DNA of 64,000 nt from the IMG/VR virus record IMGVR_UViG_2778261505_000002; one strand, written 5' to 3'. Below are positions 3,876 through 50,132 of this stretch, piece after piece. Made by a program: the position numbers and the translations under genes. A model generated the notes under the pieces. It was not told the origin of the DNA. It searched no databases and worked only from the letters and a program-made list of their open reading frames with translations. Origin of the DNA: a virus (lineage: Duplodnaviria; Heunggongvirae; Uroviricota; Caudoviricetes). The number at the start of each line of letters is the position of its first letter. The stretch's first letter is position 1.

Positions 3876-4203
3876 CCGGTATAGCGAGAGGGAGAGTTGC
3901 GGCTACCCACCTGTAATGTGCGGGAAGAAGAGAGGCGCTCACGTAGGCGGACTTGCTTACCGCTGGATTCCCTCTGAATGCCCAGCTACAGCGTAATTGT
4001 GCCAGACAGCCAACGGGTCACAATCGATTTCAGTAGGTTTTTGGGGAGAGGATTACTCTGCCACCAGCCACTTTCGGCCACTAAATCAGAATAATGTAAA
4101 AAGTGTACTCGGTACTGAACCTGAAAACTCACTGCCAAAACCACATTCACCGGAATAAAATCCTTTTTCGCCTGTGCGTTATTGCGATAATAACACCATC
4201 AAG

Positions 4204-4217
4204 AAAACATGTTGTTT
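4204..4217. promoter_or_regulatory. dyad-like AAAACATGTTGTTT (early family, imperfect)
   Basis: Family member upstream of ATG 4230. Confidence 0.4.
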
Positions 4218-4229
4218 AAGGATTGCTTT

Positions 4230-4559
4230 ATGTTTACAAATATCGACATCAACCAAATCAAGAAATTAACTCAAAAAGAGTTTGATCAGTTTTATGAGTT
4301 AGAAGGTTGGTCTTCCACTCTGATCAATTCAAGATGGGTGCTGGAGCTGATGACTCGTGATGACGCACCTGCTTTGATGATTTGCGACATGGGTGAAGAT
4401 GCTGACTTTATGGATATGAGCGAATTTTGTGTGGACACATACAACCGCAGCCAGAAGTACTACTTCACATGCGATAGCGAGAATGACGTTATTTCTAAGG
4501 TCTATCTTCACCTCGTCCAGCATTGGGACGTTCAGGAGTTTCTTGAAGTATTCGAGTAA
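4230..4559 (+). CDS. hypothetical small acidic protein (109 aa)
   Basis: ATG 4230 with AAGGA RBS 8 nt upstream; the track start 4209 lies inside the operator; D/E-rich. Confidence 0.5.
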   Translation: MFTNIDINQIKKLTQKEFDQFYELEGWSSTLINSRWVLELMTRDDAPALMICDMGEDADFMDMSEFCVDTYNRSQKYYFTCDSENDVISKVYLHLVQHWDVQEFLEVFE

Positions 4560-4686
4560 CCCCAACCAAAGCCAGCATTGCTGGCTTAATTTCTCTATAG
4601 CCGCAGGGAAGAACCTGCATATCGCTCATGCACCTGATCAATATGCTTTGTAGCCGTTTTCTTACTGGTATTATTTACGCCATTGA

Positions 4687-4701
4687 GAAAACAAGTTGTT
4701 T
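4687..4701. promoter_or_regulatory. dyad GAAAACAAGTTGTTT (early family)
   Basis: Inverted repeat upstream of ATG 4713. Confidence 0.45.
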
Positions 4702-4712
4702 ACGGAGTTGTA

Positions 4713-5024
4713 ATGAAAAAATCATTGGTTCTTGGTCTGGACAAAGACCAGAAGAGAAAAGAGAAGCCTGCGCTGGTTGCTCAATTAACTTTGCTGGACA
4801 TCGTTGCCAATGGAACCTCTATTCGTCTGTTCCGTGAAACAGCGGTGTCTTTCGATAAAAACACCTTTACTCGTTATGTAATGAATGTTCGTCGCCAGCG
4901 TGGAAAAGGCTGGGTGGCATTTCAAAGAATGTGGCCGGAACATCAGCTCGAACTGGCTTTGATGGAAGTTAACCGCGTGGCCCAGCAAGAAATTCAGAGA
5001 GCATCAGTGATGGCAATAGCCTGA
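4713..5024 (+). CDS. hypothetical protein (103 aa)
   Basis: ATG 4713 preceded by GGAG; track ORF 4683 trimmed to first RBS-supported start. Confidence 0.5.
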   Translation: MKKSLVLGLDKDQKRKEKPALVAQLTLLDIVANGTSIRLFRETAVSFDKNTFTRYVMNVRRQRGKGWVAFQRMWPEHQLELALMEVNRVAQQEIQRASVMAIA

Positions 5025-5059
5025 TAATGTGCAAGTGGCAATTAGTCGACAGTACGACA

Positions 5060-5087
5060 GCCCCGCCATCCTTACGGGGCTTTTTTG
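5060..5087 (+). terminator. rho-independent terminator
   Basis: GCCCCG-loop-CGGGGC followed by TTTTTT. Confidence 0.75.
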
Positions 5088-5150
5088 TATTGTAAGTACA
5101 TACTTACGATCATAGAATATAAAAATAACCAAAACACTACGGAGAGTGAA

Positions 5151-5546
5151 ATGACCGTTAAACGCGAAAAACTGACAGTTGATGTTTACTATGCCTCTGA
5201 AACCGCCGAAGGTAAGAATGTGGCAAAAATCACCGTTGTTACGTACAACACCGAAACTGGTGCCGAAGTCCAGGCCAGTACGATCGTGCGTAAAGGTGAT
5301 GCCTCCGGCGGCGAGTACGCGACTCAATACCAGTCCATTCTCGATGCAACTGACCCGCTGCTGCTGAAAATCGAGAACTACTTCCGCCAGGTTGATGAAG
5401 AGGTGTTTGAAACCATGATGAATATGGTTAACACCGTATTCGCCTCCAGCCTGAATACCAACACTACCTGGATTGGTCAGTACGGCCTGCGCATTACCTC
5501 TGGCATTCCTGCCGACACCTTAATCCCTGAAAGCGTATTCGCTTAA
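5151..5546 (+). CDS. hypothetical protein (131 aa)
   Basis: ATG 5151 with GGAGAG RBS; track ORF 5085 trimmed. Confidence 0.55.
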   Translation: MTVKREKLTVDVYYASETAEGKNVAKITVVTYNTETGAEVQASTIVRKGDASGGEYATQYQSILDATDPLLLKIENYFRQVDEEVFETMMNMVNTVFASSLNTNTTWIGQYGLRITSGIPADTLIPESVFA

Positions 5547-5554
5547 TCCTCTTT

Positions 5555-5583
5555 AAATGGCGCGTAAACCGCGCCATTTTATT
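5555..5583 (+). terminator. rho-independent terminator
   Basis: ATGGCGCG-TAAACC-GCGCCAT hairpin followed by TTTATT. Confidence 0.7.
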
Positions 5584-5590
5584 AAGCCCG

Positions 5591-5605
5591 ATAACAATTT
5601 GTTTT
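5591..5605. promoter_or_regulatory. dyad ATAACAATTTGTTTT (early family)
   Basis: Inverted repeat upstream of the 5622/5664 gene. Confidence 0.45.
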
Positions 5606-5663
5606 CTGCCTTATCTGATTTGTGAAAATGATTTCACTGAAGCAAGTTAATAAGGAAACCATC

Positions 5664-6038
5664 ATGGGACTTGATATCTATATCGAGACACAGCCTAAAA
5701 ACGATCTGAATAACGAGGCATCCAGAAAGCAGGTTGCTTACTTCCGTAAGTTCAATGCGCTCGTTGGGTGGATGGAGCGCAACGTAGGTGAAGTCGAAAA
5801 TTGTGAGCTTTTAGAATTAACGATGAATGACATTTGTTTTCTGAAGGCTCATTTGATGCACATAAACGAAAGTAATTGCGAAGAGTACTTGCCTACCCGG
5901 GAAGGTTTTTTCTTCGGCAGTCAGGAGTACGATGAAGGTTACTGGCATGATGTGGGGCAGTTGAAAGAGCTTGTGGAAGACCTGATTAAGAACCACGACT
6001 TTCACAATAACAGACTGACCTTCTGCGCCTGGTGGTAA
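5664..6038 (+). CDS. hypothetical protein (124 aa; alternative start 5622)
   Basis: ATG 5664 has AAGGA RBS; upstream in-frame ATG 5622 cannot be excluded. Confidence 0.5.
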   Translation: MGLDIYIETQPKNDLNNEASRKQVAYFRKFNALVGWMERNVGEVENCELLELTMNDICFLKAHLMHINESNCEEYLPTREGFFFGSQEYDEGYWHDVGQLKELVEDLIKNHDFHNNRLTFCAWW

Positions 6039-10257: not shown

Positions 10258-10536
10258 TTATTTTAATCTGCTTAATAGCGTTTCGAGATCTTCCTTTGTC
10301 ATATTAGAGTTCTCATAGATACGCATGATTTTCTCACGAGTCTTAGCGGAAGCCCCGACAGAAGATATAACCTTGTCAAAGTCGGCCATTGTCAATTGTT
10401 CCAGAATGGTATTTATGACTTCAGCCTTAGACATTTTGATATTTTTTTCTTTTAGTTTCACTTGAAACTTTCCAAGTTTGTCATTGGCCTTATCAGACAA
10501 TGCTACCTGACAGTAAGTTGTTTTCTTTTCACTCAT
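10258..10536 (-). CDS. small DNA-binding protein, ribbon-helix-helix-like (92 aa)
   Basis: beta-strand/helix pattern FQVKLKE...SKAEVINTILEQL compatible with an RHH fold. Confidence 0.4.
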   Translation of the reverse strand: MSEKKTTYCQVALSDKANDKLGKFQVKLKEKNIKMSKAEVINTILEQLTMADFDKVISSVGASAKTREKIMRIYENSNMTKEDLETLLSRLK

Positions 10537-10538
10537 AA

Positions 10539-12098
10539 CTAATCTCGTTTCAGAACTCCAAAATCGAATGCTCCATCAATAGGCAATACACCTTCTGCAA
10601 AGCCAGGTGTGGTGTCGATGATGTGTTTTCGCTCATAAGAGTGAGACAACAGGTATTTGTTGCTAATGTCAATGAAATCAGTGATAAAACACACGTTTGC
10701 CTGATTTTTTTTGGCTCGTAAGCCACGACCGACACGCTGTCTCATTTCAACTTCTGCTTTCCCACCACCAGCAAGAATGACCGCACCAACGCTTGGCACA
10801 TCAACACCAACATCCAGAATAGTCGAGCCTATTAAAACATCTATTTCACCAGACGCTAAACTATTCAGCTTTGCTTGCCTTGTCGTCTGGTTAGATTCCC
10901 CATAGATGAAATCAACTTTAAGACCTGACTCCTTCATCATCTCCATCAGGATTTGCCCGTGGCGTTTAAGACGAACCAGAGTCATGCAGTTGAGTGAATG
11001 TTGCTTATAAAGCAATGCCTCGCGCACTATGGCCTCGTTACGTCCCAAATTATACACGATCCCCAACTGATAAGCCTTTTGGTAGGCGGTGCTCATACCA
11101 ACTCTAAAATTGAGGTGTTTGTTGGCAAGTTCGGCCTTGATTCTGGCCTCGTCTGGCTTGTAGGCAACTTTATGATAAAGGAAGTACGGCTTTGCCAGAA
11201 TGCCTCGATCAATCAGGTACTTTTCTGTGACTTTAATTTCAATTCGCCCGGCCACCGCCATCAGGCGCATGTTGGCTTCCGTCGAATCCTTCATGAACGG
11301 CGTGGCTGTAAGCGCCAGACGATAGTCTGCGTTCACACATAATCTGGCAATGTCATAGAAATTAGAGCCTGAAGACTCATGCGCTTCTTCCAGAATAAGC
11401 AGAGACACACTTGAAAGGAAGCGTTTCACCAACTCCCGACGTTTGAGGTGGTAGCTCTTTTTATCTGGTGTTGCATCGCGTGGTGGTTCTTCAAGGAAAC
11501 TTGCCAGAGTTTGAACTGTAGCGACGTTGATATGTCGTGATACCTGGAACTCACCCGAGCCAATGACTCCAACCTTTTGGCCCTTTAACCACGGTTCGCC
11601 ATTTTCGGCGCGGTAGTCGATGGATCTCTGGAAGTTTTCGGCCATTTGAAACATCAGAACGGAGCGGGTTGTTAAAAATAATGTCATTCGACCGATACGT
11701 GCAGCTGCTTTGCAGGCAACGTTAGATTTCCCGCCACCAGTAGCGATCTGCGCAATCATCATTCCCTCTCGAACCAGTGTTTCCACAGTCTGATCCTGAT
11801 ACGCATAATCAGGATTGTATGGGAATGGGTTAACCGCAGGATTTGGTTTACCAAGCGCCGGGGCTTTGTCTTTGCGGATATGAACACATTTGATGCCCGC
11901 CTTGTTCAAGTTCGCCGCTACAGGCTTGGCAAAGCCAGCAGGGAACGAGTTTTTACTCCAGTTGAACATCGTGCTTGTGCCCTTCCAGTCGCCAGTCTCG
12001 ACTTCGTAGCTCAACATTTGCTGCACCAGTTGCTTTACCTTGTCATCTGCGCCAGAAATAAGCGCATTTACTGCGTTAGATACAATCCGAACAGTCAT
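10539..12098 (-). CDS. superfamily 2 helicase (DEAD/DEAH-like)
   Basis: Motif I ATGGGKS, motif II LEEAHE, motif III TATP, motif VI QRVGRGLR. Confidence 0.8.
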   Translation of the reverse strand: MTVRIVSNAVNALISGADDKVKQLVQQMLSYEVETGDWKGTSTMFNWSKNSFPAGFAKPVAANLNKAGIKCVHIRKDKAPALGKPNPAVNPFPYNPDYAYQDQTVETLVREGMMIAQIATGGGKSNVACKAAARIGRMTLFLTTRSVLMFQMAENFQRSIDYRAENGEPWLKGQKVGVIGSGEFQVSRHINVATVQTLASFLEEPPRDATPDKKSYHLKRRELVKRFLSSVSLLILEEAHESSGSNFYDIARLCVNADYRLALTATPFMKDSTEANMRLMAVAGRIEIKVTEKYLIDRGILAKPYFLYHKVAYKPDEARIKAELANKHLNFRVGMSTAYQKAYQLGIVYNLGRNEAIVREALLYKQHSLNCMTLVRLKRHGQILMEMMKESGLKVDFIYGESNQTTRQAKLNSLASGEIDVLIGSTILDVGVDVPSVGAVILAGGGKAEVEMRQRVGRGLRAKKNQANVCFITDFIDISNKYLLSHSYERKHIIDTTPGFAEGVLPIDGAFDFGVLKRD

Positions 12099-12162
12099 AA
12101 ACCTCTTTCCTTAGTGCCTTTTGTATGTTATTTGGCTATTATAATAAGTAAGTGATTACTTA

Positions 12163-12861
12163 GTGGATTGTAGCAATAAAATGGATGTAAAAATCACGAT
12201 TTTGCAGGTTGATGTTGCCAACCTTCGCCCGAATACCTGGAACACCAATTCGGTTGGTGCGCAGAATTTTGAAAAACTGAAAGGTTCTATCGAAAAATTG
12301 GGCTTTTTTAAGCCAATTTTGGCTCGTGAACTTGAAGATGGATTTTTTGAAATCCTCGGCGGCGAACATCGCTGGCGTGCTGCTATTGAGCAAGGAATTT
12401 CAACGGTTCCGGTGCTTTCTGTGGGCAAAATTAGCGATGTCGTAGCTAAACAGATGTCACTGGTGGACAACGAGCGATACGGTGAAGACGACCAAATCGC
12501 ATTGCAACGCTTCATTGAAGAAATTCAGTCAGAACTTGACTATCAACTGTCTGAAATCGCTCCGTATGACGACGAAATCTCGATGGTTTTAGCAAAAGAG
12601 GCGGCAATCGACCTTGAAGCACTGGAGGCGTTGTCTCGTGGTAGTGATGAGCCTGTCGATACCGACAAACGAGAGAAAACCGAACGTGTGGGTGCGGAAC
12701 ATCAGACCATGCGCTTCAAAGTAACTTTCGATGCGTCAGATCGTGTTGCAGAAACCATAAAAAACATCATCAAAGAGCAGGCTATTAACACCGGTAATGA
12801 AATGGAGAACGCTGGTGAGGCTCTGGTGTGGCTGGTCGACTACTACAAGGAGCGTATGTAA
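12163..12861 (+). CDS. ParB N-terminal-domain (ParB/Srx-fold) protein
   Basis: GGEHRWRAA resembles the ParB arginine-rich box; start could be 12181. Confidence 0.6.
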   Translation: MDCSNKMDVKITILQVDVANLRPNTWNTNSVGAQNFEKLKGSIEKLGFFKPILARELEDGFFEILGGEHRWRAAIEQGISTVPVLSVGKISDVVAKQMSLVDNERYGEDDQIALQRFIEEIQSELDYQLSEIAPYDDEISMVLAKEAAIDLEALEALSRGSDEPVDTDKREKTERVGAEHQTMRFKVTFDASDRVAETIKNIIKEQAINTGNEMENAGEALVWLVDYYKERM

Positions 12862-13529
12862 TGACCAAAAAGTTTGAAATCGTATATCGCGACCCGGCAG
12901 ATCTTATTCCCTATGAGATGAATGCCAAAAAGCATGATGAACAGCAGATCAGAGATCTGGCCGCAGCCATTAAAAAGCGCGGATTTGACCAGCCAATTAC
13001 GGTCGATAAGAACGACGTAATTATTACTGGCCACGGCCGCCGTGAGGCTGCAATTTTTGCTGGACTTGAGCGCGTACCGGTTATTGTTCGTGATGATCTG
13101 AGTGATGACGAGGTACGTGCAAAGCGCCTTGAAGATAACCGACTTGCCAGCATTGATTACGATGCAATTAAGCTACAGAAAGAGCTTGAGTCGCTTGTTC
13201 TGGACGATATCGAGGTTTTCGGCTTCGAAGAGCGTGAGTTGAATGTTCTCGTTGGCAGTATGACAGAAGAAATGGACACCGACTCGCTAGTTATCGATCT
13301 TGGCGAAGAAACTAAACGACAGAAGGATGAACACACCGAGATCAGTCGTGAAGTTGCAGCGGAAGAAGTACGTGTTGTCGACGTATTGGGCTTTAAAACG
13401 CTCCCTGCTGGCTCTGCCATTGTTGTTGGTGATTTGCTTGCCCACATGGAAGAAATGACGGGAGAAAGCGGGGTAGACGCATTTGTGGCATATGCGGAGA
13501 AGATCTCTTCCGGGGAGATGGCTGCATGA
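12861..13529 (+). CDS. second ParB N-terminal-domain protein
   Basis: GHGRREAA motif; ATG overlaps the upstream stop (TAATG). Confidence 0.6.
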   Translation: MTKKFEIVYRDPADLIPYEMNAKKHDEQQIRDLAAAIKKRGFDQPITVDKNDVIITGHGRREAAIFAGLERVPVIVRDDLSDDEVRAKRLEDNRLASIDYDAIKLQKELESLVLDDIEVFGFEERELNVLVGSMTEEMDTDSLVIDLGEETKRQKDEHTEISREVAAEEVRVVDVLGFKTLPAGSAIVVGDLLAHMEEMTGESGVDAFVAYAEKISSGEMAA

Positions 13530-14191
13530 GCAAATACATCATCAACGTATCGTTTCAGACACGCGTAAATAAAACCACGCGCACGTTGGAAATCGCTGAG
13601 TCGTTCGGGCTTGGCCTGGACGAAAAAGAGTGGACGCTTTACGACAATCTGGAGCTGGAAGTGAAGCAGGGCGATGTGGTGTACATCACCGGCCAATCCG
13701 GTTCCGGCAAATCCGTTGTGCTGCGCGAGTTGCAACGACAGATGAAGGATGAAGGGCTGTCTGTAGCCTCCATCGATGATTTTACCTTCGATAATGAGGT
13801 TAACGTCATCGATCAGTTGGGCAAAACGACCAGTGATGCGCTTGGGTTGTTATCTATGGCTGGTCTGAACGATGCATATCTGTTTGTTCGCAAGCCTTCT
13901 GAAATGTCAGACGGCCAGAAATATCGTCTCAAGATTGCCAAACTGATTGAGTCAGGCGCTAAAGTATGGGCTGCTGACGAGTTCGGCGCTGTTCTAGACC
14001 GTGTAACTGCTCAGGTTGTGGCGTCTAACCTCCAGCGTGCCGCTCGAAAGGTTGGTGCGACGGTAATGGTGGCGACGACTCACGAAGACCTGAAGAACGC
14101 GCTGCGCCCGGATATGCAGATCACCAAGCACTACAAAGAACGCGTGAAGGTGGAATATCACAATGGTAGTCATGATGAGGTCCATTCATGA
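13526..14191 (+). CDS. small ABC-type ATPase (nucleotide-binding-domain-like, 221 aa)
   Basis: Walker A GQSGSGKS, signature-like MSDGQ, Walker B VWAADEF, H-loop TTHE; ATGA overlap with upstream gene. Confidence 0.6.
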   Translation: MSKYIINVSFQTRVNKTTRTLEIAESFGLGLDEKEWTLYDNLELEVKQGDVVYITGQSGSGKSVVLRELQRQMKDEGLSVASIDDFTFDNEVNVIDQLGKTTSDALGLLSMAGLNDAYLFVRKPSEMSDGQKYRLKIAKLIESGAKVWAADEFGAVLDRVTAQVVASNLQRAARKVGATVMVATTHEDLKNALRPDMQITKHYKERVKVEYHNGSHDEVHS

Positions 14192-15078
14192 CGGACATCA
14201 TCATTAAACGCTACCGCCCTGAAGAGTTTCCGCGTCATCTGGACTTTCTGGAGCGAATGACTGTTACAAAAGGAACTGTAGAGGACTGGCACGCTCTTAA
14301 GTCGCTTCACTACAAAACAGACGGCAAACCTTTCGCGCCAACTTACTATCGCTGCGAACTTGATGACCGTCTGGTGGGCGTCGTGGTTATGGCTTACCCG
14401 AAACTACTGCTGGCACCTCGCCATCGCATGTTTCCTAAGTTGAAACCAACCACCAATACCACCGTGGCTAACCAGTACTGGGGCCGGTACGTGAATAACA
14501 ACTTTGCGGTGATCAGCCGCTCAGTCGTGGATACTCAGTACCGTGGCGTAGGCGTCTCTTATCGAATGATTAACCTGGTTAGCAGGATGCATGACCGGCC
14601 AATCATTGAGATCCAGTCATCGATGAGCAAATACAATCCCTTCGCCATGAAAGCAGGGTTTAAGTTCATCCGCCCTGAGCGACCGAAGAGCTATGAAAGT
14701 GCACTGCGTGTGTTCCAGCGCCATTTCCGCTCCGACCCGGGTGATAACGAGGCGATCGTCAAAGAGTTGTTCGCTATGAGCGAGTCTCGTCGTCGCCGTG
14801 CACTGCGTGATCTGGTGGCGGACTACCACAAGAACAGTTCCCTGGCAAAAGCTGGGCGGAATCGTGGCACGACGATTCAGGACATTGCCGACAGTCTGGT
14901 GGACGAGGCCAGCATTGTGAAGCTGCTCAAGGACATTCACAACCTGAGCTTTACGTCTCCGTTGTATGGTGTGTATCGAAACCCTGACTTTGGTCGTCGA
15001 CTGCCTGACACGCTGCCACTGCTGGCATTCGACAAACAACCTTTGGATAAACCGTTAGAAATTGCTTTACCGGCATAA
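14188..15078 (+). CDS. hypothetical protein with possible GNAT acetyltransferase-like core
   Basis: TQYRGVGVSYRMIN resembles GNAT motif A (R-x-x-G-x-G); weak. Confidence 0.4.
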   Translation: MTDIIIKRYRPEEFPRHLDFLERMTVTKGTVEDWHALKSLHYKTDGKPFAPTYYRCELDDRLVGVVVMAYPKLLLAPRHRMFPKLKPTTNTTVANQYWGRYVNNNFAVISRSVVDTQYRGVGVSYRMINLVSRMHDRPIIEIQSSMSKYNPFAMKAGFKFIRPERPKSYESALRVFQRHFRSDPGDNEAIVKELFAMSESRRRRALRDLVADYHKNSSLAKAGRNRGTTIQDIADSLVDEASIVKLLKDIHNLSFTSPLYGVYRNPDFGRRLPDTLPLLAFDKQPLDKPLEIALPA

Positions 15079-15087
15079 GGATTTGCC

Positions 15088-15354
15088 ATGACGTTAACCG
15101 ATAAACAAAAGGACATCATCAAAACGCTCAATCTCGGTTATGAGCGAGGTCATCTACTTGACCTGGACGAATTGCTTGAAGTTTTGCCGTACAAGACAAC
15201 CAAGCAAAGTATCCAGTTCTCAATTCGCGCTCTGATAAAAAAGGGGCTGGTGGAGAAAGGGCATACGCGCCAACGCAGTGACAATCGCTATCACCGCCGA
15301 ACTCTTGGGTTAACTACTTTAGGTCGAGCCAAAGCGAAGTTACTGGTGATGTAA
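15088..15354 (+). CDS. small winged-helix DNA-binding protein (88 aa)
   Basis: HTH-like segment TTKQSIQFSIRALIKKGLV; basic C-terminus. Confidence 0.4.
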   Translation: MTLTDKQKDIIKTLNLGYERGHLLDLDELLEVLPYKTTKQSIQFSIRALIKKGLVEKGHTRQRSDNRYHRRTLGLTTLGRAKAKLLVM

Positions 15355-15378
15355 TCGGTCTGGGAGCTTATTTAAAGA

Positions 15379-15433
15379 CCTGCTTCTGTATATATAAATA
15401 ATAAGTAACTTATTAAATATATACGGAAGCAGG
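15379..15433. repeat. 55 bp palindromic element, copy 1
   Basis: CCTGCTTCTGTATATATAAATAATAAGTAACTTATTAAATATATACGGAAGCAGG; near-identical copy at 47837-47891. Confidence 0.7.
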
Positions 15434-15468
15434 CTTCGTAAGACATGCCAGACCTAATTAAACACCCC

Positions 15469-15510
15469 AGAAAACAAGTTGGTTAGCAGATGCAGTAAAC
15501 AAGTTGTTTT
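15469..15510. promoter_or_regulatory. two tandem early-family dyads (AGAAAACAAGTTGGTT, GTAAACAAGTTGTTTT)
   Basis: Upstream of terminase small subunit gene. Confidence 0.45.
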
Positions 15511-15549: not shown

Positions 15550-16182
15550 ATGACGGTCGAAAAAGACGAGGTAAAAACTCGCCTGACACCAGCGGAGTGG
15601 GCCGAAGCTGAAGCCAAATGGACGTCAGGCGAATATACACTCTCAAAGCTGGAGGAAGAGTACGGCATTCGTCGTGAAACACTCTCCAGACATTTCAAAA
15701 AGCGAGGATTAGAGAAAGGCGCGGACTCTGTTGGGAAGATGGTTCGTGAGTCTCTTAAATCTGACGCAGAGCTTCGCGCTAAAGCCCGTGCGGAAAAGAT
15801 AGAAGAACGTCGTACACGTTATGACGGCTGGGCGTATGCGTTGGGGCAGATGGTGATGGTCGAAGTCACTACGGCCAAACGTGAGGGTAAGCCTTTAGGG
15901 GCGATTGAGGATTCTCTCAAGAGCTTACAGAGAGCCAGTAATACCCTTGCAAAATGCTTTGAAGTTTCGTCCAAAGCATTGGGCATGGATCATGCGGAAA
16001 ATGACGAGGAAGAAATTCCGAACCTGGTATTTGGTGAGCTTACGCCTTCCCAGGTGGCGAAATTACGTCAGGAAGACGACGAGCCTGAAATCATCGATGA
16101 CGAATTGCTTGAGACGTTGGAAGAAGAAGCTCTAAGCGAATTTGATGCGACAGATGATGGAAGTGAAGGGGAGGACGAATAA
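15550..16182 (+). CDS. terminase small subunit (putative)
   Basis: N-terminal HTH, acidic C-terminus, directly upstream of and overlapping TerL. Confidence 0.55.
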   Translation: MTVEKDEVKTRLTPAEWAEAEAKWTSGEYTLSKLEEEYGIRRETLSRHFKKRGLEKGADSVGKMVRESLKSDAELRAKARAEKIEERRTRYDGWAYALGQMVMVEVTTAKREGKPLGAIEDSLKSLQRASNTLAKCFEVSSKALGMDHAENDEEEIPNLVFGELTPSQVAKLRQEDDEPEIIDDELLETLEEEALSEFDATDDGSEGEDE

Positions 16183-17438
16183 TGGCAATCCCGTCCTCGC
16201 TCAGTCTTGTGCAACTGCATTCTGGACAGATGAAAGTCTTCCAGTCTCCGCATCGATTTAAAGTTGTTTGTGCTGGTCGACGCTGGGGAAAATCCCGGTT
16301 GTCGATCTCCACTATTATTCGTGCGGCGGCAAAGGAAAAAAAGCAAAGGGTCTGGTATGTCGCTCCTACTTACCAGATGGCTCGCCAGATTTTGTGGGAC
16401 GATCTACAGGAAGTTCTGCCTCGTAAGTGGGTTAGGAAAAAGAACGACACCACGATGACAATCGTGTTGAAGAACGGTTCGGAGATCGCCCTCAAAGGTG
16501 CTGATAAGCCTGACACTCTGCGCGGCGTAGCGTTGCATTTTGTAGTGCTTGATGAATTTCAGGATATGAAGGCTGACACCTGGTACAAGGTGTTACGACC
16601 TACTCTTTCATCGACACGCGGCGGTGCACTGATCATTGGTACGCCAAAAGGCTTCTCGGAATTTCACAAACTGTGGACTATAGGCCAGAACGTAGAGCTG
16701 CAAAGAAAGGGACAGTGGAAGAGCTGGCAGTTTGTAACTGCCGATTCTCCGTTTGTACCTACGGCGGAAATTGAAGCTGCTAAGAACGATATGGACCCCA
16801 AATCGTTCGCTCAGGAGTACCTGGCCAGCTTTGAGAACATGTCCGGGCGCGTTTACTACCCGTTCGATCGTAACGTGCATGTAAAACCGCTTCAGTTCAA
16901 CCCTCGGTTGCCTATATGGGTAGGGCAGGACTTCAACATTGACCCGATGTCTTCAGTAATTTTGCAACCTCAGCCAAATGGTGAGCTATGGGCAATTGAT
17001 GAATTGGTGCTCTTTTCCTCTAACACGGCAGAAGTTTGTGATGAGCTTGAGAGACGCTTCTGGCGCTGGAAATCACAGGTAACGGTATTTCCAGATCCGG
17101 CAGGTGCTTATCGCCAACATGCTCGTGGGGAGTCTGACGTAGACATATTCAAAGAGAAGGGATTCTTACGTGTCGATTATTCGAAAAAGCACCCGCCAAT
17201 TGCGGATCGTGTTAATGCTGTTAACCGAATGCTGATGTCCGCATCTGGAGATATCCGGCTGTATATCGATCCGAAGTGCAAGCATTTGATTGATTCACTG
17301 GAAAAAGTCATCTACAAGCCTGGAACACGAGATATGGATAAGACAGGTGGCATTGAGCATAGTGCAGACGCATTGGGCTATCCAGTACATCGTAGGTATC
17401 CAGTCAAAAACCGTGTTATTCTTGGTGGTTCTCGATAG
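16182..17438 (+). CDS. terminase large subunit
   Basis: Walker A-like CAGRRWGKS, Walker B VVLDEF, C-terminal nuclease-like region. Confidence 0.8.
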   Translation: MAIPSSLSLVQLHSGQMKVFQSPHRFKVVCAGRRWGKSRLSISTIIRAAAKEKKQRVWYVAPTYQMARQILWDDLQEVLPRKWVRKKNDTTMTIVLKNGSEIALKGADKPDTLRGVALHFVVLDEFQDMKADTWYKVLRPTLSSTRGGALIIGTPKGFSEFHKLWTIGQNVELQRKGQWKSWQFVTADSPFVPTAEIEAAKNDMDPKSFAQEYLASFENMSGRVYYPFDRNVHVKPLQFNPRLPIWVGQDFNIDPMSSVILQPQPNGELWAIDELVLFSSNTAEVCDELERRFWRWKSQVTVFPDPAGAYRQHARGESDVDIFKEKGFLRVDYSKKHPPIADRVNAVNRMLMSASGDIRLYIDPKCKHLIDSLEKVIYKPGTRDMDKTGGIEHSADALGYPVHRRYPVKNRVILGGSR

Positions 17439-45877: not shown

Positions 45878-46546
45878 ATGACCAAGATCTTTGTGGTTGG
45901 CGGCACAAAGGGCGGGCCTGGCAAATCCACCGTTGCCCAGCAAATTGCCGTTTGCCTGAAAGTCAAAAAGAAGAAGAAGGTTTATATTACCGATATAGAT
46001 ATTCAGCGCACGACAACGAGCTGGTGTGAAGACCGTCGACAGAACGAAGACCTTGAGCTGATTCCTTTTGCATACGTTCAGGATGACATCATTAAGCACC
46101 TAAAATCGCTTCAGGGTAGAGCTGAGTTTGTAGTGGTAGATGCTGGTGGCTTCGACTCCGAAATTCAGCGACAAGCGATGCTGATGGCTGACGTTATCAT
46201 TATCCCGCTGCGTCCTAAGCGTCGTGATTTGAAATCTTTACGTGACATCGATCCTATTATCGACAATGTTCGCAATGTAAACGATAAAGTGAAGGTCCGC
46301 GCGGTCATGAACCAGTGCCCGGCTTTGCCATCACAAGTGTCTCGCATTCTGGCGGCTAAAGAGATTGTTGAGACGTTTGGAATCGAGTCTGCGCCAGTCA
46401 ATCTATATAACCGCAACGTCTATGATGATGCGGAAGAGTCTGGTCGTTCTATCTTTGAAATGACCGGTAGCGAGCGCGACAAAAAGGCGGAAGCCGAGTT
46501 TGAAGAATTTGTAGATTATCTGTTGAGTCTGGAGGAAGAAGAATAA
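45878..46546 (+). CDS. ParA-family partition ATPase
   Basis: Deviant Walker A GGTKGGPGKST; 222 aa. Confidence 0.8.
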   Translation: MTKIFVVGGTKGGPGKSTVAQQIAVCLKVKKKKKVYITDIDIQRTTTSWCEDRRQNEDLELIPFAYVQDDIIKHLKSLQGRAEFVVVDAGGFDSEIQRQAMLMADVIIIPLRPKRRDLKSLRDIDPIIDNVRNVNDKVKVRAVMNQCPALPSQVSRILAAKEIVETFGIESAPVNLYNRNVYDDAEESGRSIFEMTGSERDKKAEAEFEEFVDYLLSLEEEE

Positions 46547-46905
46547 TGTCCATGAAAATGGGTGACCTAGCAAAGCGCAAAGAGCCTGATGCACCGGCTA
46601 AGAACACAACTCCTTTGCGCCAACCAGTCAGACCACAGGGACGCCCGACTCGTGGCAAAGAGAAAATTAAAAGCCGCACAATGTCACTGGAGGACGAATA
46701 CTTCGAACTGCTGGAGATGATGAAGTTCATCCCTCGCTTCGAGAAGTTCACTCGTTCTGACGTGATTCGAGCAGCCATTTTCCATCTGGCAGAGAAGTCA
46801 CCGCAGGAAATCGAGGACATCGTGAAATTGAATGAGGCGATCACCGCTGCCGATGTCACGATGCGTACCGATGAAATCAAACGAGAGTTGATGAAGAAAG
46901 GTTAA
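46546..46905 (+). CDS. small partition-associated DNA-binding protein (ParG/RHH-like, putative)
   Basis: 119 aa, basic N-terminus, translationally coupled to ParA. Confidence 0.5.
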   Translation: MSMKMGDLAKRKEPDAPAKNTTPLRQPVRPQGRPTRGKEKIKSRTMSLEDEYFELLEMMKFIPRFEKFTRSDVIRAAIFHLAEKSPQEIEDIVKLNEAITAADVTMRTDEIKRELMKKG

Positions 46906-46957: not shown

Positions 46958-47725
46958 TTATGCCGCGCTAACACTATGTTCAGTCCTAACCACCCCAACC
47001 TTCACAAAAGGGCTACCGTAGCTTGGTGGCTTCTTGATTAATTTGCCTACATACAGTTTTCTAATATGCTCATCGGCTATTCTGCCAACAAATTCATAAC
47101 GTTTTGTGTCGGGGCCAAGAGCTATATCCCTTGTAAAGTACTGCTGAGAACCGGCTTTGACCCAGCATTCAATCTGATAAACTTCCATTATCAGCCCACC
47201 ATATGTAGCGTAGGCATATTTGAGATTCTCGTCTCTTGGAACCTTTGCCCATACGCCACGCGTAGCTTCATATAATGCCAGAGCGGACATTCCTGACTTG
47301 TAGGTGCTGTTTAGCAGGAAGGCAAGACCGGCGTGCTCAGGAGCAATTTCAGTTTCCTCTTGCAGCACTAAGTGATGGTAGGCGTCTAGTGATATTCTGC
47401 CCATCATGGAACCACTTCCTCGTACCTTATTCGTAAGCTCTCCGACCCCCATAAGGTCGATGCATGTCGCCTCAACAAGTTTGGCTGTGGTTTCATCCAT
47501 ACCATGACGAAGTATATCTATGCCTAATTTTTTATTAGCCAAAAGTTCTTTGATCCGCATGGATTTGGGAGAGTCATCGGGATACTTGATGTGATCGAGA
47601 CAACGAGTCGATTTGCCTTTTCCTATGTAAAACGGTCTTTTCATCTTGTCTTCTGTATCATAGAGACAGTAAACATAGTATTTAGCCTTATCCAATGATC
47701 TCGCGTATACCGATAAATCGTCCAT
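46958..47725 (-). CDS. GIY-YIG nuclease-domain protein (255 aa)
   Basis: N-terminal YVYCLYD...PFYIGKGK...R...H matches the GIY-YIG pattern; C-terminal region unassigned. Confidence 0.6.
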   Translation of the reverse strand: MDDLSVYARSLDKAKYYVYCLYDTEDKMKRPFYIGKGKSTRCLDHIKYPDDSPKSMRIKELLANKKLGIDILRHGMDETTAKLVEATCIDLMGVGELTNKVRGSGSMMGRISLDAYHHLVLQEETEIAPEHAGLAFLLNSTYKSGMSALALYEATRGVWAKVPRDENLKYAYATYGGLIMEVYQIECWVKAGSQQYFTRDIALGPDTKRYEFVGRIADEHIRKLYVGKLIKKPPSYGSPFVKVGVVRTEHSVSAA

Positions 47726-47836: not shown

Positions 47837-47891
47837 CCTGCTTCCGTATATATAAATAATAAGTAACTTATTAAATATATACGGAAGCAGG
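47837..47891. repeat. 55 bp palindromic element, copy 2
   Basis: Near-identical to 15379-15433. Confidence 0.7.
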
Positions 47892-48791: not shown

Positions 48792-50132
48792 ATGACCGAA
48801 CTTTGCCATACAGGACGCGGGCTGTCCGAAGAATTTGATGAAGATTTCCAGAACAGACTGACGGCATATTTTTGTCGTGATCACGAGTTTCTTACTCGTG
48901 CGGGAGATCTGGTTGTGCCTAGCCAGTTTGCCAATGCGGCCAATGCCATATTGGTTAATATGGTTTCGGGCTATTACCGTATGTACAAGAGCGCGCCCTC
49001 TTCATCTGCAATTCTGGATATGCTTAAGCGTGCGAAACGCGATAAGACTATCCGTGAGGAACTATTCGCCGATGTTGTTGCTGCGTTTAAGCGCATCCTT
49101 GCAGAAAAATTGTCCGATACCTCGTACATGGTTGACCAGGTATCAACCTTCGCAAAAAGTGTAGCGTTTGATGATGCTCTGATTAAGGCTGCTGAACTGA
49201 AAGAGAAAGGCGACTTTCAGGGGGCGATGGCAATCATGGCCAAGGTTCAGCAGATTGGATCGAACGAAGCGACCGGAATCTATGACTACTACACCTCCGC
49301 AAGTGAGCGATTGAAAGCGCGTGAATATGAGGCTTCAGAGGAGTATGTACCAAACAGTATTACAACTGGACTCCCTCTTCTCGATAGGTTGCTGTACCAA
49401 AAAGGCTGGGCAAAGCGCGAAATGGTGCTCTTCATGGGGTTCGCTAAATCCGGTAAATCGACCGCAATGGGGGAGTTTTCCATAAACGCAACACTTGCTG
49501 GCTACAATGTTCTGTATCTCTCGCTGGAGGTTCACACCACCATTTTATCCGACCGTTTTGATGCAAGATTGTCGGAGACGGAAATGTCCAAGTTGGTGGA
49601 ACGGCGCGATGAAGTTCATCGTAAGTTGGCAGAGTTGGGAGCCTCTAAGGGGATTGGTAGTTTGTGGGTTGTTGAGCGTCCGTCAGGAAGTATGTCACCG
49701 GCAGATCTGGACCGTATGCTTAACAGTATGAAAGCCAATGGCATGGTGCCTGACATGGTTGTTGTCGACTACGCAGATTTGATGCGTGCCAGTTATGACC
49801 TTCGTGATGATCGCGCCAACATTCGTAGTATCTACACCGATTTACGTGCTCTTTATGACAAGCATAACGTTGCTGGGATCACGGCATCGCAGACAAACCG
49901 TGAAGGTGGCGCGTCAGAAGTTGCCACAATGATGCACGCTGCCGACAACATCGAAAAAGTACGTATTGCTGACCTGGTAATAACGATCAACAAAACCGAA
50001 GAAGAAGAAGCGAAAGGAGAGGCTCGTCTCTACTTTGCTGGTTCACGTAACCAGCAGGGAGGGATCAGCATTCGCGTTAAACAAAACCTCGAACAAATGC
50101 GCTTCATTGAGCGAATCTTAGACGTTACCTAA
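48792..50132 (+). CDS. DnaB-like replicative helicase
   Basis: Walker A GFAKSGKST, SLEV (DnaB-type) motif, RecA-like C-terminal domain. Confidence 0.75.
   Translation: MTELCHTGRGLSEEFDEDFQNRLTAYFCRDHEFLTRAGDLVVPSQFANAANAILVNMVSGYYRMYKSAPSSSAILDMLKRAKRDKTIREELFADVVAAFKRILAEKLSDTSYMVDQVSTFAKSVAFDDALIKAAELKEKGDFQGAMAIMAKVQQIGSNEATGIYDYYTSASERLKAREYEASEEYVPNSITTGLPLLDRLLYQKGWAKREMVLFMGFAKSGKSTAMGEFSINATLAGYNVLYLSLEVHTTILSDRFDARLSETEMSKLVERRDEVHRKLAELGASKGIGSLWVVERPSGSMSPADLDRMLNSMKANGMVPDMVVVDYADLMRASYDLRDDRANIRSIYTDLRALYDKHNVAGITASQTNREGGASEVATMMHAADNIEKVRIADLVITINKTEEEEAKGEARLYFAGSRNQQGGISIRVKQNLEQMRFIERILDVT

Follow-up and report, generated by a model that had tools for sequence, protein, structure and literature searches.

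This report concerns a five-gene operon in a 64,000-nucleotide stretch of DNA from a tailed virus (Caudoviricetes; IMG/VR record IMGVR_UViG_2778261505_000002), hereafter the window. All five open reading frames (ORF1–ORF5) lie on the plus strand between positions 12,163 and 15,354, upstream of the genes for a TerS-like protein and the terminase large subunit (TerL), and encode, in order, two proteins with a ParB N-terminal domain (ParB1 and ParB2), an ABC-type nucleotide-binding domain (NBD), a predicted acyltransferase of the GNAT fold and a small winged-helix protein (Table 1). Region 12100–15500 shares 98–99% identity with the E. coli SSU5-type phage-plasmids CMS-2020a, PhiR41_1 and Cyrano; identity falls to 85% with Salmonella phage SSU5 and to ~81% with Klebsiella relatives. 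On these values, the window is an SSU5-type phage-plasmid of E. coli. The same region matches 793 plasmids in PLSDB, with at least 80% of its length covered in 741, so the operon is a stable part of a very common enterobacterial phage-plasmid.

Table 1 Positions of the features discussed, with the matches that identify them (window coordinates unless another locus is named; aa, amino acids; pI, isoelectric point).
Feature	Position	Strand	Matches and remarks
DEAD/ResIII-type helicase	10539–12098	−	Pfam; divergent from the operon
Divergent intergenic region, helicase/ParB1	12099–12180	+	Sequence read directly
ParB1, 226 aa, pI 4.55	12181–12861	+	Pfam ParB_N E 3e-13; phrog_723 E 2e-79
ParB2, 222 aa, pI 4.53	12861–13529	+	Pfam ParB_N E 1e-8; phrog_930 E 1e-112; paralogue of ParB1
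ABC nucleotide-binding domain (ORF3), 221 aa	13526–14191	+	Pfam ABC_tran E 6e-13; phrog_293, phrog_11143
GNAT-fold acyltransferase (predicted; ORF4), 296 aa, pI 9.8	14188–15078	+	GNAT fold, residues ~20–165
Winged-helix protein (ORF5), small, basic, 88 aa, pI 10.2	15088–15354	+	phrog_900 E 2e-45
Near-perfect AT-centred palindrome, 55 bp	15379–15433		Between the operon and the TerS-like gene
Inverted pair of the 13-mer AAACAAGTTGTTT	15471–15510		Just upstream of the TerS-like gene
TerS-like DNA-binding protein	15550–16182	+	phrog_867 E 2e-100; directly before TerL; gene order same in relatives
Terminase large subunit (TerL)	16182–17438	+	Pfam Terminase_6N, Terminase_3, Terminase_6C; phrog_2, phrog_10250
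Palindrome, second copy, 55 bp	47837–47891		Between the GIY-YIG-like gene and the replication (DnaB) region
AAACAAGTTGTTT sites	1531, 1582, 3022, 4205, 4689, 5592, 6356, 15472, 15497, 45830, 48760, 59290		
Amidoligase_2 next to ABC-GNAT in two different Firmicute prophages	L088 7510–8400; L087 7505–8344		

Architecture of the operon

The original prediction had described five translationally coupled genes. Coupling stands for the TAATG junction of ParB1 and ParB2 (12859–12863), at which the TAA stop (12859–12861) shares a base with the following ATG (12861–12863), and for the ATGA overlaps of ParB2 with ABC (13526–13529) and of ABC with GNAT (14188–14191). The last pair does not overlap; a 9-nt spacer carrying AGGA separates the GNAT stop codon (15076–15078) from the ATG of ORF5 at 15088. 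The longest frame of ORF1 opens with a GTG at 12163, and an alternative ATG lies at 12181; the ATG is the more likely start, because homologues and the PHROG profile align from MDVK. For all five genes, protein identity to relatives exceeds nucleotide identity, most extremely for GNAT (96.6% against 82.6% in a Klebsiella relative), so that all five are functional genes, under strong purifying selection.

ParB1 and ParB2 both exceed the Pfam cut-off for ParB_N, as does ORF3 for ABC_tran. The GxxR region reads GGEHRWRAA in ParB1 and TGHGRREAA in ParB2, both of which align to GERRxRAA of Spo0J, and box III reads DNERY and EDNR, respectively; the GxxR motif and the box-III asparagine are conserved in the alignments. 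Spo0J, ParB and Noc give the best matches in the PDB, and ParB1 has orthologues in the phages nickie, RHEph10 and BUCTxx99. In fold, motifs and PDB matches the proteins thus resemble the ParB of ParABS partition systems, but they differ from it in being acidic, in scoring 43 bits each against a cut-off of 58.45 for partition-type ParB (TIGR00180), in lacking a recognisable helix-turn-helix (HTH) or parS-binding domain and a ParA partner, and in belonging to an operon that also occurs in phages not known as phage-plasmids. Neither protein had an HTH match in Pfam, and their central regions are acidic (pI ~4.1). Beyond phrog_930 and phrog_620, the profiles nearest to ParB2 are the ParB domains of ParB-methyltransferase fusions; it matches phrog_498 (‘DNA methyltransferase’) at E 1e-31 and the PADLOC profile MTase_II PDLC03229 at E 3e-17, the latter over the ParB part only.

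The predicted structure of ORF5 (AlphaFold2 model; predicted local distance difference test, 81.7) has the topology H-b-H-H-hairpin-H of a canonical winged helix, and Foldseek aligns it with MepR, MarR and small archaeal winged-helix proteins (template-modelling score 0.7–0.77, E ~1e-4). DNA binding by ORF5 is predicted from this fold. The four folds first proposed for the operon are borne out, as is the winged helix. Searches of the Pfam, NCBIfam, PHROGs and PADLOC libraries yielded domain names but no function for the five genes; PADLOC returned no specific system, with generic matches to the ParB part of MTase_II and, on the P-loop, to mad3, PtuA and others, and nothing for GNAT.

The ABC and GNAT genes are halves of one protein

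As in ABC transporters, ORF3 has a full set of NBD motifs (Walker A GQSGSGKS, signature MSDGQ, Walker B WAADE, D-loop VLD and H-loop TTHE). Unlike in transporters, there is no membrane permease partner, the other products of the operon being ParB, GNAT and winged-helix proteins, and in relatives the NBD is fused to a GNAT domain. ORF4, the most conserved gene of the operon, combines the GNAT fold with a C-terminal extension made of helices and a beta-hairpin. Its motif A loop reads YRGVGVSY, in which R119 and G122 are invariant across 49 sequences, and fused relatives carry an equivalent Y-R/x-G-x-G-L-G. ORF4 itself scores below the Pfam cut-off for Acetyltransf_10 (E 0.037; 14.4 bits against 23.6), whereas some fused relatives pass the GNAT threshold (Acetyltransf_1, 35.9 bits for Jace gp86). 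A sequence search of the PDB with ORF4 returned only noise (AlkD at E ~1). Its structural neighbours in Foldseek include agmatine and polyamine acetyltransferases, TmcA, NAT10 and phage Mu Mom, the last three ranking no higher than ordinary GNATs.

An ORF4-based profile search over 1.8 billion representatives gave 900 matches, many of them proteins of 450–500 aa in which the ORF4-like part occupies residues ~200–480 and is preceded by an ABC_tran domain (Pfam). ORF3 followed by ORF4 is colinear with these fused relatives over their whole length, ABC forming the N-terminal and GNAT the C-terminal half, with Walker A, LSDGQ, DEF..LDR, the H-loop, ‘W..FHY’ and GNAT motif A in common. Similarly, residues 5–424 of the fused protein of locus L088 cover both window genes in two pieces when searched with tblastn. 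Distant ORF4 homologues are labelled ‘ABC-type ATPase with predicted acetyltransferase domain’ at JGI, and ORF3 and ORF4 together align at full length (Walker A, LSxGQ, DE, H-loop and GNAT motif A) with the COG2401 type, an ‘ABC-type ATPase fused to a predicted acetyltransferase domain’; they differ from it in being two genes that overlap by ATGA rather than a single polypeptide. COG2401 is a database name, for which no characterised member was found in the literature searched. These alignments identify the ABC and GNAT genes as the split form of one conserved COG2401-like fusion protein, to be treated as one functional unit. What had been predicted as a minimal ABC ATPase and a GNAT-like protein thus kept its folds, but the two are halves of one protein and not independent partners.

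In the window the two halves overlap directly, with nothing inserted at their junction. In relatives this junction holds extra genes, of 84 aa in SSU5 (L252 2112–2366), 183 aa in Klebsiella pJN2-26 (L253 2355–2906) and 111 aa in nickie (L001 4661–4996), while RHEph10 has a DUF2829 gene and another gene there (L002 4393–4895). Gene insertion at the junction may be the route by which a fused gene was split. Among unusual ABC-GNAT relatives (P0181, P0206, P0164 and P0154) are forms with an N-terminal family-B DNA polymerase, with a C-terminal TFIIB repeat, and with an intein that carries a LAGLIDADG domain inside the ABC domain.

ParB and ABC-GNAT recur beside packaging genes

With ORF4 as query, tblastn found homologues of ~41% identity in phages of ~105–120 kb that infect Pseudomonas (nickie and relatives), Rhizobium (RHEph10 and relatives), Stenotrophomonas and Xanthomonas. 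The gene order in these phages is divergent helicase, ParB, ParB, ABC, GNAT-like protein, small protein, TerS-like protein, TerL and portal, and the small protein is homologous to ORF5, being present at the same position in nickie, RHEph10, BUCTxx99 and JGB6. The cassette is thus a fixed, syntenic gene set in the SSU5/nickie/RHEph10 lineage. To this lineage the second ParB is specific, and the winged-helix gene was likewise seen only there, other lineages not having been searched for it. A scan of IMG/VR with the ORF4 alignment recovered only near-identical SSU5-type contigs.

Other cultured phages carry a shorter fused ABC-GNAT of ~365 aa, behind a ParB gene. In Pasteurella phage Pmp13 the order is Q, lysis genes, ParB, ABC-GNAT, TerS, TerL and portal, which places the cassette within the late operon, and in Leptospira phage LE4 it is ParB, ABC-GNAT, TerL and portal. 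In two actinophages, further enzyme genes follow: Gordonia phage BiggityBass has ParB, ABC-GNAT, a formyltransferase (gene 3; L167 1823–2473) and TerL, and Rhodococcus phage Jace has ParB, ABC-GNAT, an aspartate decarboxylase (PanD, E 2e-33) and a CoA-transferase III (gp87–88; L168 6610–7721). When IMG/VR was scanned with this ~365-aa form, at least 571 relatives were found, of which 80 loci were kept. Of the 64 loci with enough upstream sequence, 61 have a ParB frame that ends no more than 400 nt upstream. At least 2.5 kb of downstream sequence was available in 61 loci, and in 48 of these TerL follows on the same strand, the median gap being 0.7 kb. TerS genes of several kinds (Terminase_4, DUF5681 and HTH types) stand between cassette and TerL in other phages. 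Since the TerL, TerS and portal proteins of these loci fall in several unrelated Pfam families, the linkage is positional and functional rather than a simple co-inheritance with one packaging machine.

A scan of genomes with a narrower fused-family alignment, keeping one genome per species, gave another 80 loci, mostly in Bathyarchaeia, with some in other archaea and a few in bacteria. In 48 of them, a TerL gene (Terminase_6N/6C) on the same strand is no more than 1.1 kb away, upstream in 43 (often overlapping) and downstream in 5, the two genes often overlapping or lying within 100 nt; no TerL was detected in at least 16 loci flanked on either side by 4 kb or more. Tail genes near the loci identify these as tailed proviruses, and at one (L111) the ABC-GNAT gene sits between a major capsid gene and a tail-type gene. 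In three archaeal loci (L104, L126 and L133) ParB_N, ABC and GNAT form a single polypeptide. In a Bathyarchaeota contig (L096) a GmrSD gene (3991–5817) lies directly upstream of ABC-GNAT; GmrS, the N-terminal domain of GmrSD, has been described as ParB-like (PMC5512222). Among the bacterial loci, a Bacillaceae prophage has the order integrase, ABC-GNAT, Amidoligase_2, small ORF, TerL of another family, portal and head protein, and in a Thermincola locus Amidoligase_2 again follows ABC-GNAT directly.

Two features of the Bathyarchaeia loci were also observed. Several single metagenome-assembled genomes (for example, CAYRSV01 and JAAZBP01) hold two to three different ABC-GNAT/TerL loci (among L089–L166), which suggests multiple related proviruses per genome. 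Two conserved small genes without a Pfam match, encoding 147 and 85 aa, precede TerL in ~50 loci, and the product of the second is probably membrane-spanning.

Taken together, the two scans and the cultured phages identify ParB plus ABC-GNAT as a widespread cassette beside the packaging genes of bacterial and archaeal tailed viruses, and the adjacency in 61 of 64 loci, together with the ParB_N-ABC-GNAT fusions, argues that ParB is a genuine partner of ABC-GNAT. The original prediction had regarded the combination of genes as one that it did not recognise. This remains true in that no named system fits, but the combination is not peculiar to this element, its core of ParB and ABC-GNAT recurring together in unrelated phages and archaeal proviruses. 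As the genes do occur together in other genomes, the original prediction passes the refuting condition that had been set for it.

Neighbouring genes and DNA elements

Divergent from the operon, the window carries the helicase gene and a gene for a 92-aa protein (phrog_1466), together spanning 10258–12098 on the minus strand. Synteny of the helicase extends to nickie, RHEph10, BUCTxx99 and JGB6, and a small frame is found beyond it in the Stenotrophomonas and Xanthomonas phages as well. Neither gene accompanies ABC-GNAT outside the ~110-kb phage lineage. The helicase was considered as a member of the module and rejected, since no helicase match was found near ABC-GNAT in the 80 archaeal and bacterial loci; it probably lies outside the module. 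On the other side of the operon, a portal gene follows the TerS-like and TerL genes. A replacement of TerS by ABC-GNAT was also considered and rejected, because TerS genes stand alongside it both in the window and in other phages.

A separate ParA system at 45.9 kb had been proposed, and it was found there: the ParA gene (45878–46546), encoding a small MipZ/ParA-type ATPase, is followed by a gene for a 119-aa partner without a Pfam match, the locus extending over 45878–46905. By its composition it looks like a type Ib partition system. An opposite-strand gene with a GIY-YIG (LEM-3-like) nuclease domain (46958–47725) adjoins this locus.

The 55-bp palindromic element predicted downstream of the operon was confirmed, and a second copy was found. 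The deposited linear records of SSU5 (L252/L005) and Cyrano open inside the palindrome, ~10 nt to the right of its centre, and RHEph10 has an unrelated inverted repeat with 34-nt arms at the equivalent intergenic position (L002 6121–6201). The palindrome is a candidate binding or loading site, operator, origin, terminator, cos/pac site or assembly break. In the divergent intergenic region, TATAAT occurs at 12140–12145 without a good −35 element, and a consensus scan of the region found no full sigma-70 promoter. Scanning of the operon for sigma-70 promoters and terminators gave nothing beyond shuffled expectation, and no terminator was called at the palindrome. The 11-mer ATAATAAGTAA lies at 12141–12151; its only other exact copies in the 64 kb are those in the centres of the two palindromes, three in all. 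The original prediction had named the motif at 12143 late-type, a designation to be taken as putative.

The near-palindromic AAACAAGTTGTTT recurs ~14 times in the window and has 27 strand matches at up to two mismatches against 3.3 expected; several sites lie just 5′ of genes (TerS-like at 15550, ParA at 45878 and DnaB at 48792). The motif may serve a conserved regulator as an operator or promoter element. In nickie, a ACAAGTTGTTAA inverted repeat lies 5′ of the TerS-like gene (L001 6230–6269).

A proposed role in DNA modification before packaging

The reading that we favour, if with slightly less than even confidence, is that the cassette encodes an acyltransferase, gated by ATP and assisted by ParB, which modifies progeny DNA before it is packaged, probably late in infection. 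Under this proposal, the acidic, HTH-less ParB1 and ParB2 would act as nucleoside triphosphate-dependent DNA clamps or activators, probably as a hetero-oligomer, and would keep the basic GNAT subunit on replicated phage DNA, the winged-helix protein perhaps providing site-specific loading at the palindromic element. On closure driven by ATP, the ABC dimer would gate a DNA base, presumably at an exocyclic amine, into the GNAT active site, where an acyl group would be transferred from acyl-CoA. The group would be acetyl in the window; other donors would be likely where aspartate decarboxylase and CoA-transferase, formyltransferase or amidoligase genes are attached. Expression of the cassette would probably be late, as judged from its position in the lambdoid phage Pmp13. 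Progeny genomes would thereby be marked before packaging, which might protect them from restriction or tune DNA-protein interactions. More tentatively still, the cassette may represent a new class of machinery for post-replicative DNA modification, common to bacterial and archaeal tailed viruses, namely an ATP-gated, ParB-loaded DNA N-acyltransferase that writes acetyl groups (in some phages perhaps beta-alanyl, formyl-capped or amide-extended groups) onto viral bases shortly before packaging.

DNA modification is favoured, in the first place, because a ParB paired with an enzyme beside terminase genes already marks post-replicative DNA-modification genes of phages. ParB (27%) and terminases (19%) are found together with phage 5mYOX DNA-modification clusters, and one such ParB that has no DNA-binding domain is required for T-dioxygenase activity on double-stranded DNA (PMC13229309); prophages are enriched in ParB-methyltransferase fusions (PMC12704722). 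Like these fusions (phrog_498) and the 5mYOX176/ParB176 pair, the cassette pairs an enzyme with an adjacent or fused ParB in which no DNA-binding domain is evident; the genes belong to phages or prophages and frequently lie beside the terminase, and ParB2 matches the ParB part of the methyltransferase fusions. Unlike in these modules, the enzyme is a predicted ABC-ATPase/GNAT acyltransferase rather than a methyltransferase or dioxygenase, the window has two paralogous ParBs and a winged-helix protein, and many archaeal copies have no ParB nearby. By analogy, we place the cassette with the ParB-partnered, terminase-proximal DNA-modification modules of phages.

The variable neighbours supply a second reason, because they resemble tailoring or donor-supply steps and not packaging factors. 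Aspartate decarboxylase and CoA-transferase could together make beta-alanyl-CoA, and the varying enzymes suggest alternative acyl donors or further tailoring. A third lies in the structural neighbours of GNAT, among which base-modifying enzymes exist. TmcA and NAT10 are ATP-dependent RNA cytidine N4-acetyltransferases, and phage Mu Mom is a GNAT-fold DNA adenine modifier; TmcA and NAT10 also couple a GNAT to an ATPase, although theirs is helicase-type (RecD-like) and not ABC-type, and none of the three has detectable sequence similarity to the window proteins. A fourth reason is that the GNAT subunit is basic and the ParBs are acidic. Conservation of the catalytic motifs of ABC and GNAT and of the GxxR and asparagine of ParB, with the strong purifying selection on the genes, also speaks for this reading.

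Several observations weigh on the other side. No ParB lies within 6 kb in 77 of the 80 genome loci, which have the long type of ABC-GNAT, while the adjacency to TerL persists; this fits a link to packaging at least as well. The cassette is fixed and syntenic in the ~110-kb phages, whereas anti-restriction modification genes are often patchy. The literature searched reports no modified base for any phage that carries the cassette, and late expression is read from gene position only.

Alternative readings

‘DNA modification’ and ‘packaging accessory’, both named in the original prediction, stay as the two leading readings. In the second, which we consider the less likely by some way but the strongest of the alternatives, a complex of ParB and ABC-GNAT would work with the terminase: the ParBs would load near a pac/cos region (the palindrome), the ABC dimer would organise or mark concatemers, and GNAT might acetylate TerS, TerL, the portal or DNA-bound host proteins to let packaging begin. 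No association of ABC-GNAT is tighter or more universal than that with TerL (48 of 80 genome loci and 48 of 61 IMG/VR loci), and it holds even where ParB is missing. The L111 gene between capsid and tail-type genes, the fixed gene set of the SSU5/nickie/RHEph10 lineage and the palindrome between operon and TerS, in which two deposited genomes were opened, point the same way. Separate TerS genes nevertheless stand alongside the cassette (Terminase_4, DUF5681, HTH types and phrog_867), and the unrelated terminase and portal families argue against a specific partnership with one terminase type. It is not obvious what PanD, CoA-transferase, formyltransferase and amidoligase would do in packaging, and the well-flanked loci without detectable TerL also tell against it. 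To our knowledge, no ABC or GNAT component occurs in any characterised packaging motor.

Somewhat less probable again is an ATP-gated GNAT that acetylates host or viral proteins (of the nucleoid, defence, repair or the virion) or polyamines, ParB serving only to localise it to DNA. The Foldseek matches to agmatine and polyamine acetyltransferases agree with such an enzyme, and GNATs of phage polyvalent proteins have been predicted to be protein modifiers (PMC5512222). The top GNAT matches, however, merely mirror the most populous PDB families, the strongly basic GNAT is consistent with nucleic-acid binding, and the obligate fusion to ABC, the fusion or adjacency to ParB and the fixed position beside the terminase would all be left unexplained.

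We regard as improbable a regulator of late genes, in which the ParBs and the winged-helix protein would bind the palindromic or 11-mer elements and so activate the operon of packaging and structural genes, possibly by modifying DNA locally. A similar mode of action has been proposed for co-activators of prophage genes that contain ParB, and E. coli IbrA and IbrB (the latter with a ParB domain) carry such an annotation; in the window, ATAATAAGTAA occurs only before ParB1 and in the two palindromes, the winged-helix gene is kept in the lineage, and the operon lies immediately 5′ of structural genes. Yet the winged-helix gene and the palindrome are lineage-specific while ParB and ABC-GNAT are widespread, and a regulator would need neither a conserved ABC ATPase nor the GNAT catalytic loop.

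A plasmid partition, exclusion or anti-phage defence system of the phage-plasmid is already largely refuted and most improbable: for all that the element is a plasmid prophage with ParB_N domains, and that ABC ATPases occur in several defence systems and gave weak PADLOC matches, the same operon is found in ~110-kb Pseudomonas, Rhizobium, Stenotrophomonas and Xanthomonas phages and in integrated archaeal and bacterial proviruses, the ParBs fall under the TIGR00180 cut-off and lack an HTH, and no ParA is adjacent, the separate ParA lying 33 kb away. The earlier view that this is neither a ParABS partition system nor a named defence module is thus upheld, and the exclusion system that it had entertained is unlikely, as the operon is conserved at the same place in phages outside the enterobacterial phage-plasmids. 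As weak further evidence against partition or defence, the list of genes expressed in Cyrano lysogens names no ParB, ABC or acetyltransferase of the operon (PMC9928086).

Implications

No published description of the cassette, or of a function for the fused family, was found in the literature searched. Current annotations are piecemeal (‘ParB-like partition protein’, ‘ABC transporter’ and ‘hypothetical’), and of these ‘ABC transporter’ and ‘partition protein’ are misleading. Under any of the readings, the cassette is a cleanly defined and widely conserved set of ‘hypothetical’ genes, readily open to genetics since cultures exist of SSU5, Cyrano, nickie and several actinophages. Should packaging prove to be its role, a terminase system would for the first time have an ABC/GNAT component.

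If the cassette does modify DNA, hundreds of clinical Enterobacteriaceae phage-plasmids, many cultured phages and numerous archaeal proviruses would carry an unrecognised enzyme system. We know of no DNA acylation in phages other than that by Mu Mom. ATP-dependent DNA acylation would be new chemistry: phages would have a new base modification with which to evade restriction, and biotechnology a new type of enzyme for writing on DNA. It would also add a third ParB-partnered enzyme to the methyltransferases and dioxygenases, and would cast ParB-fold NTPases as loaders or activators of DNA-modifying enzymes.

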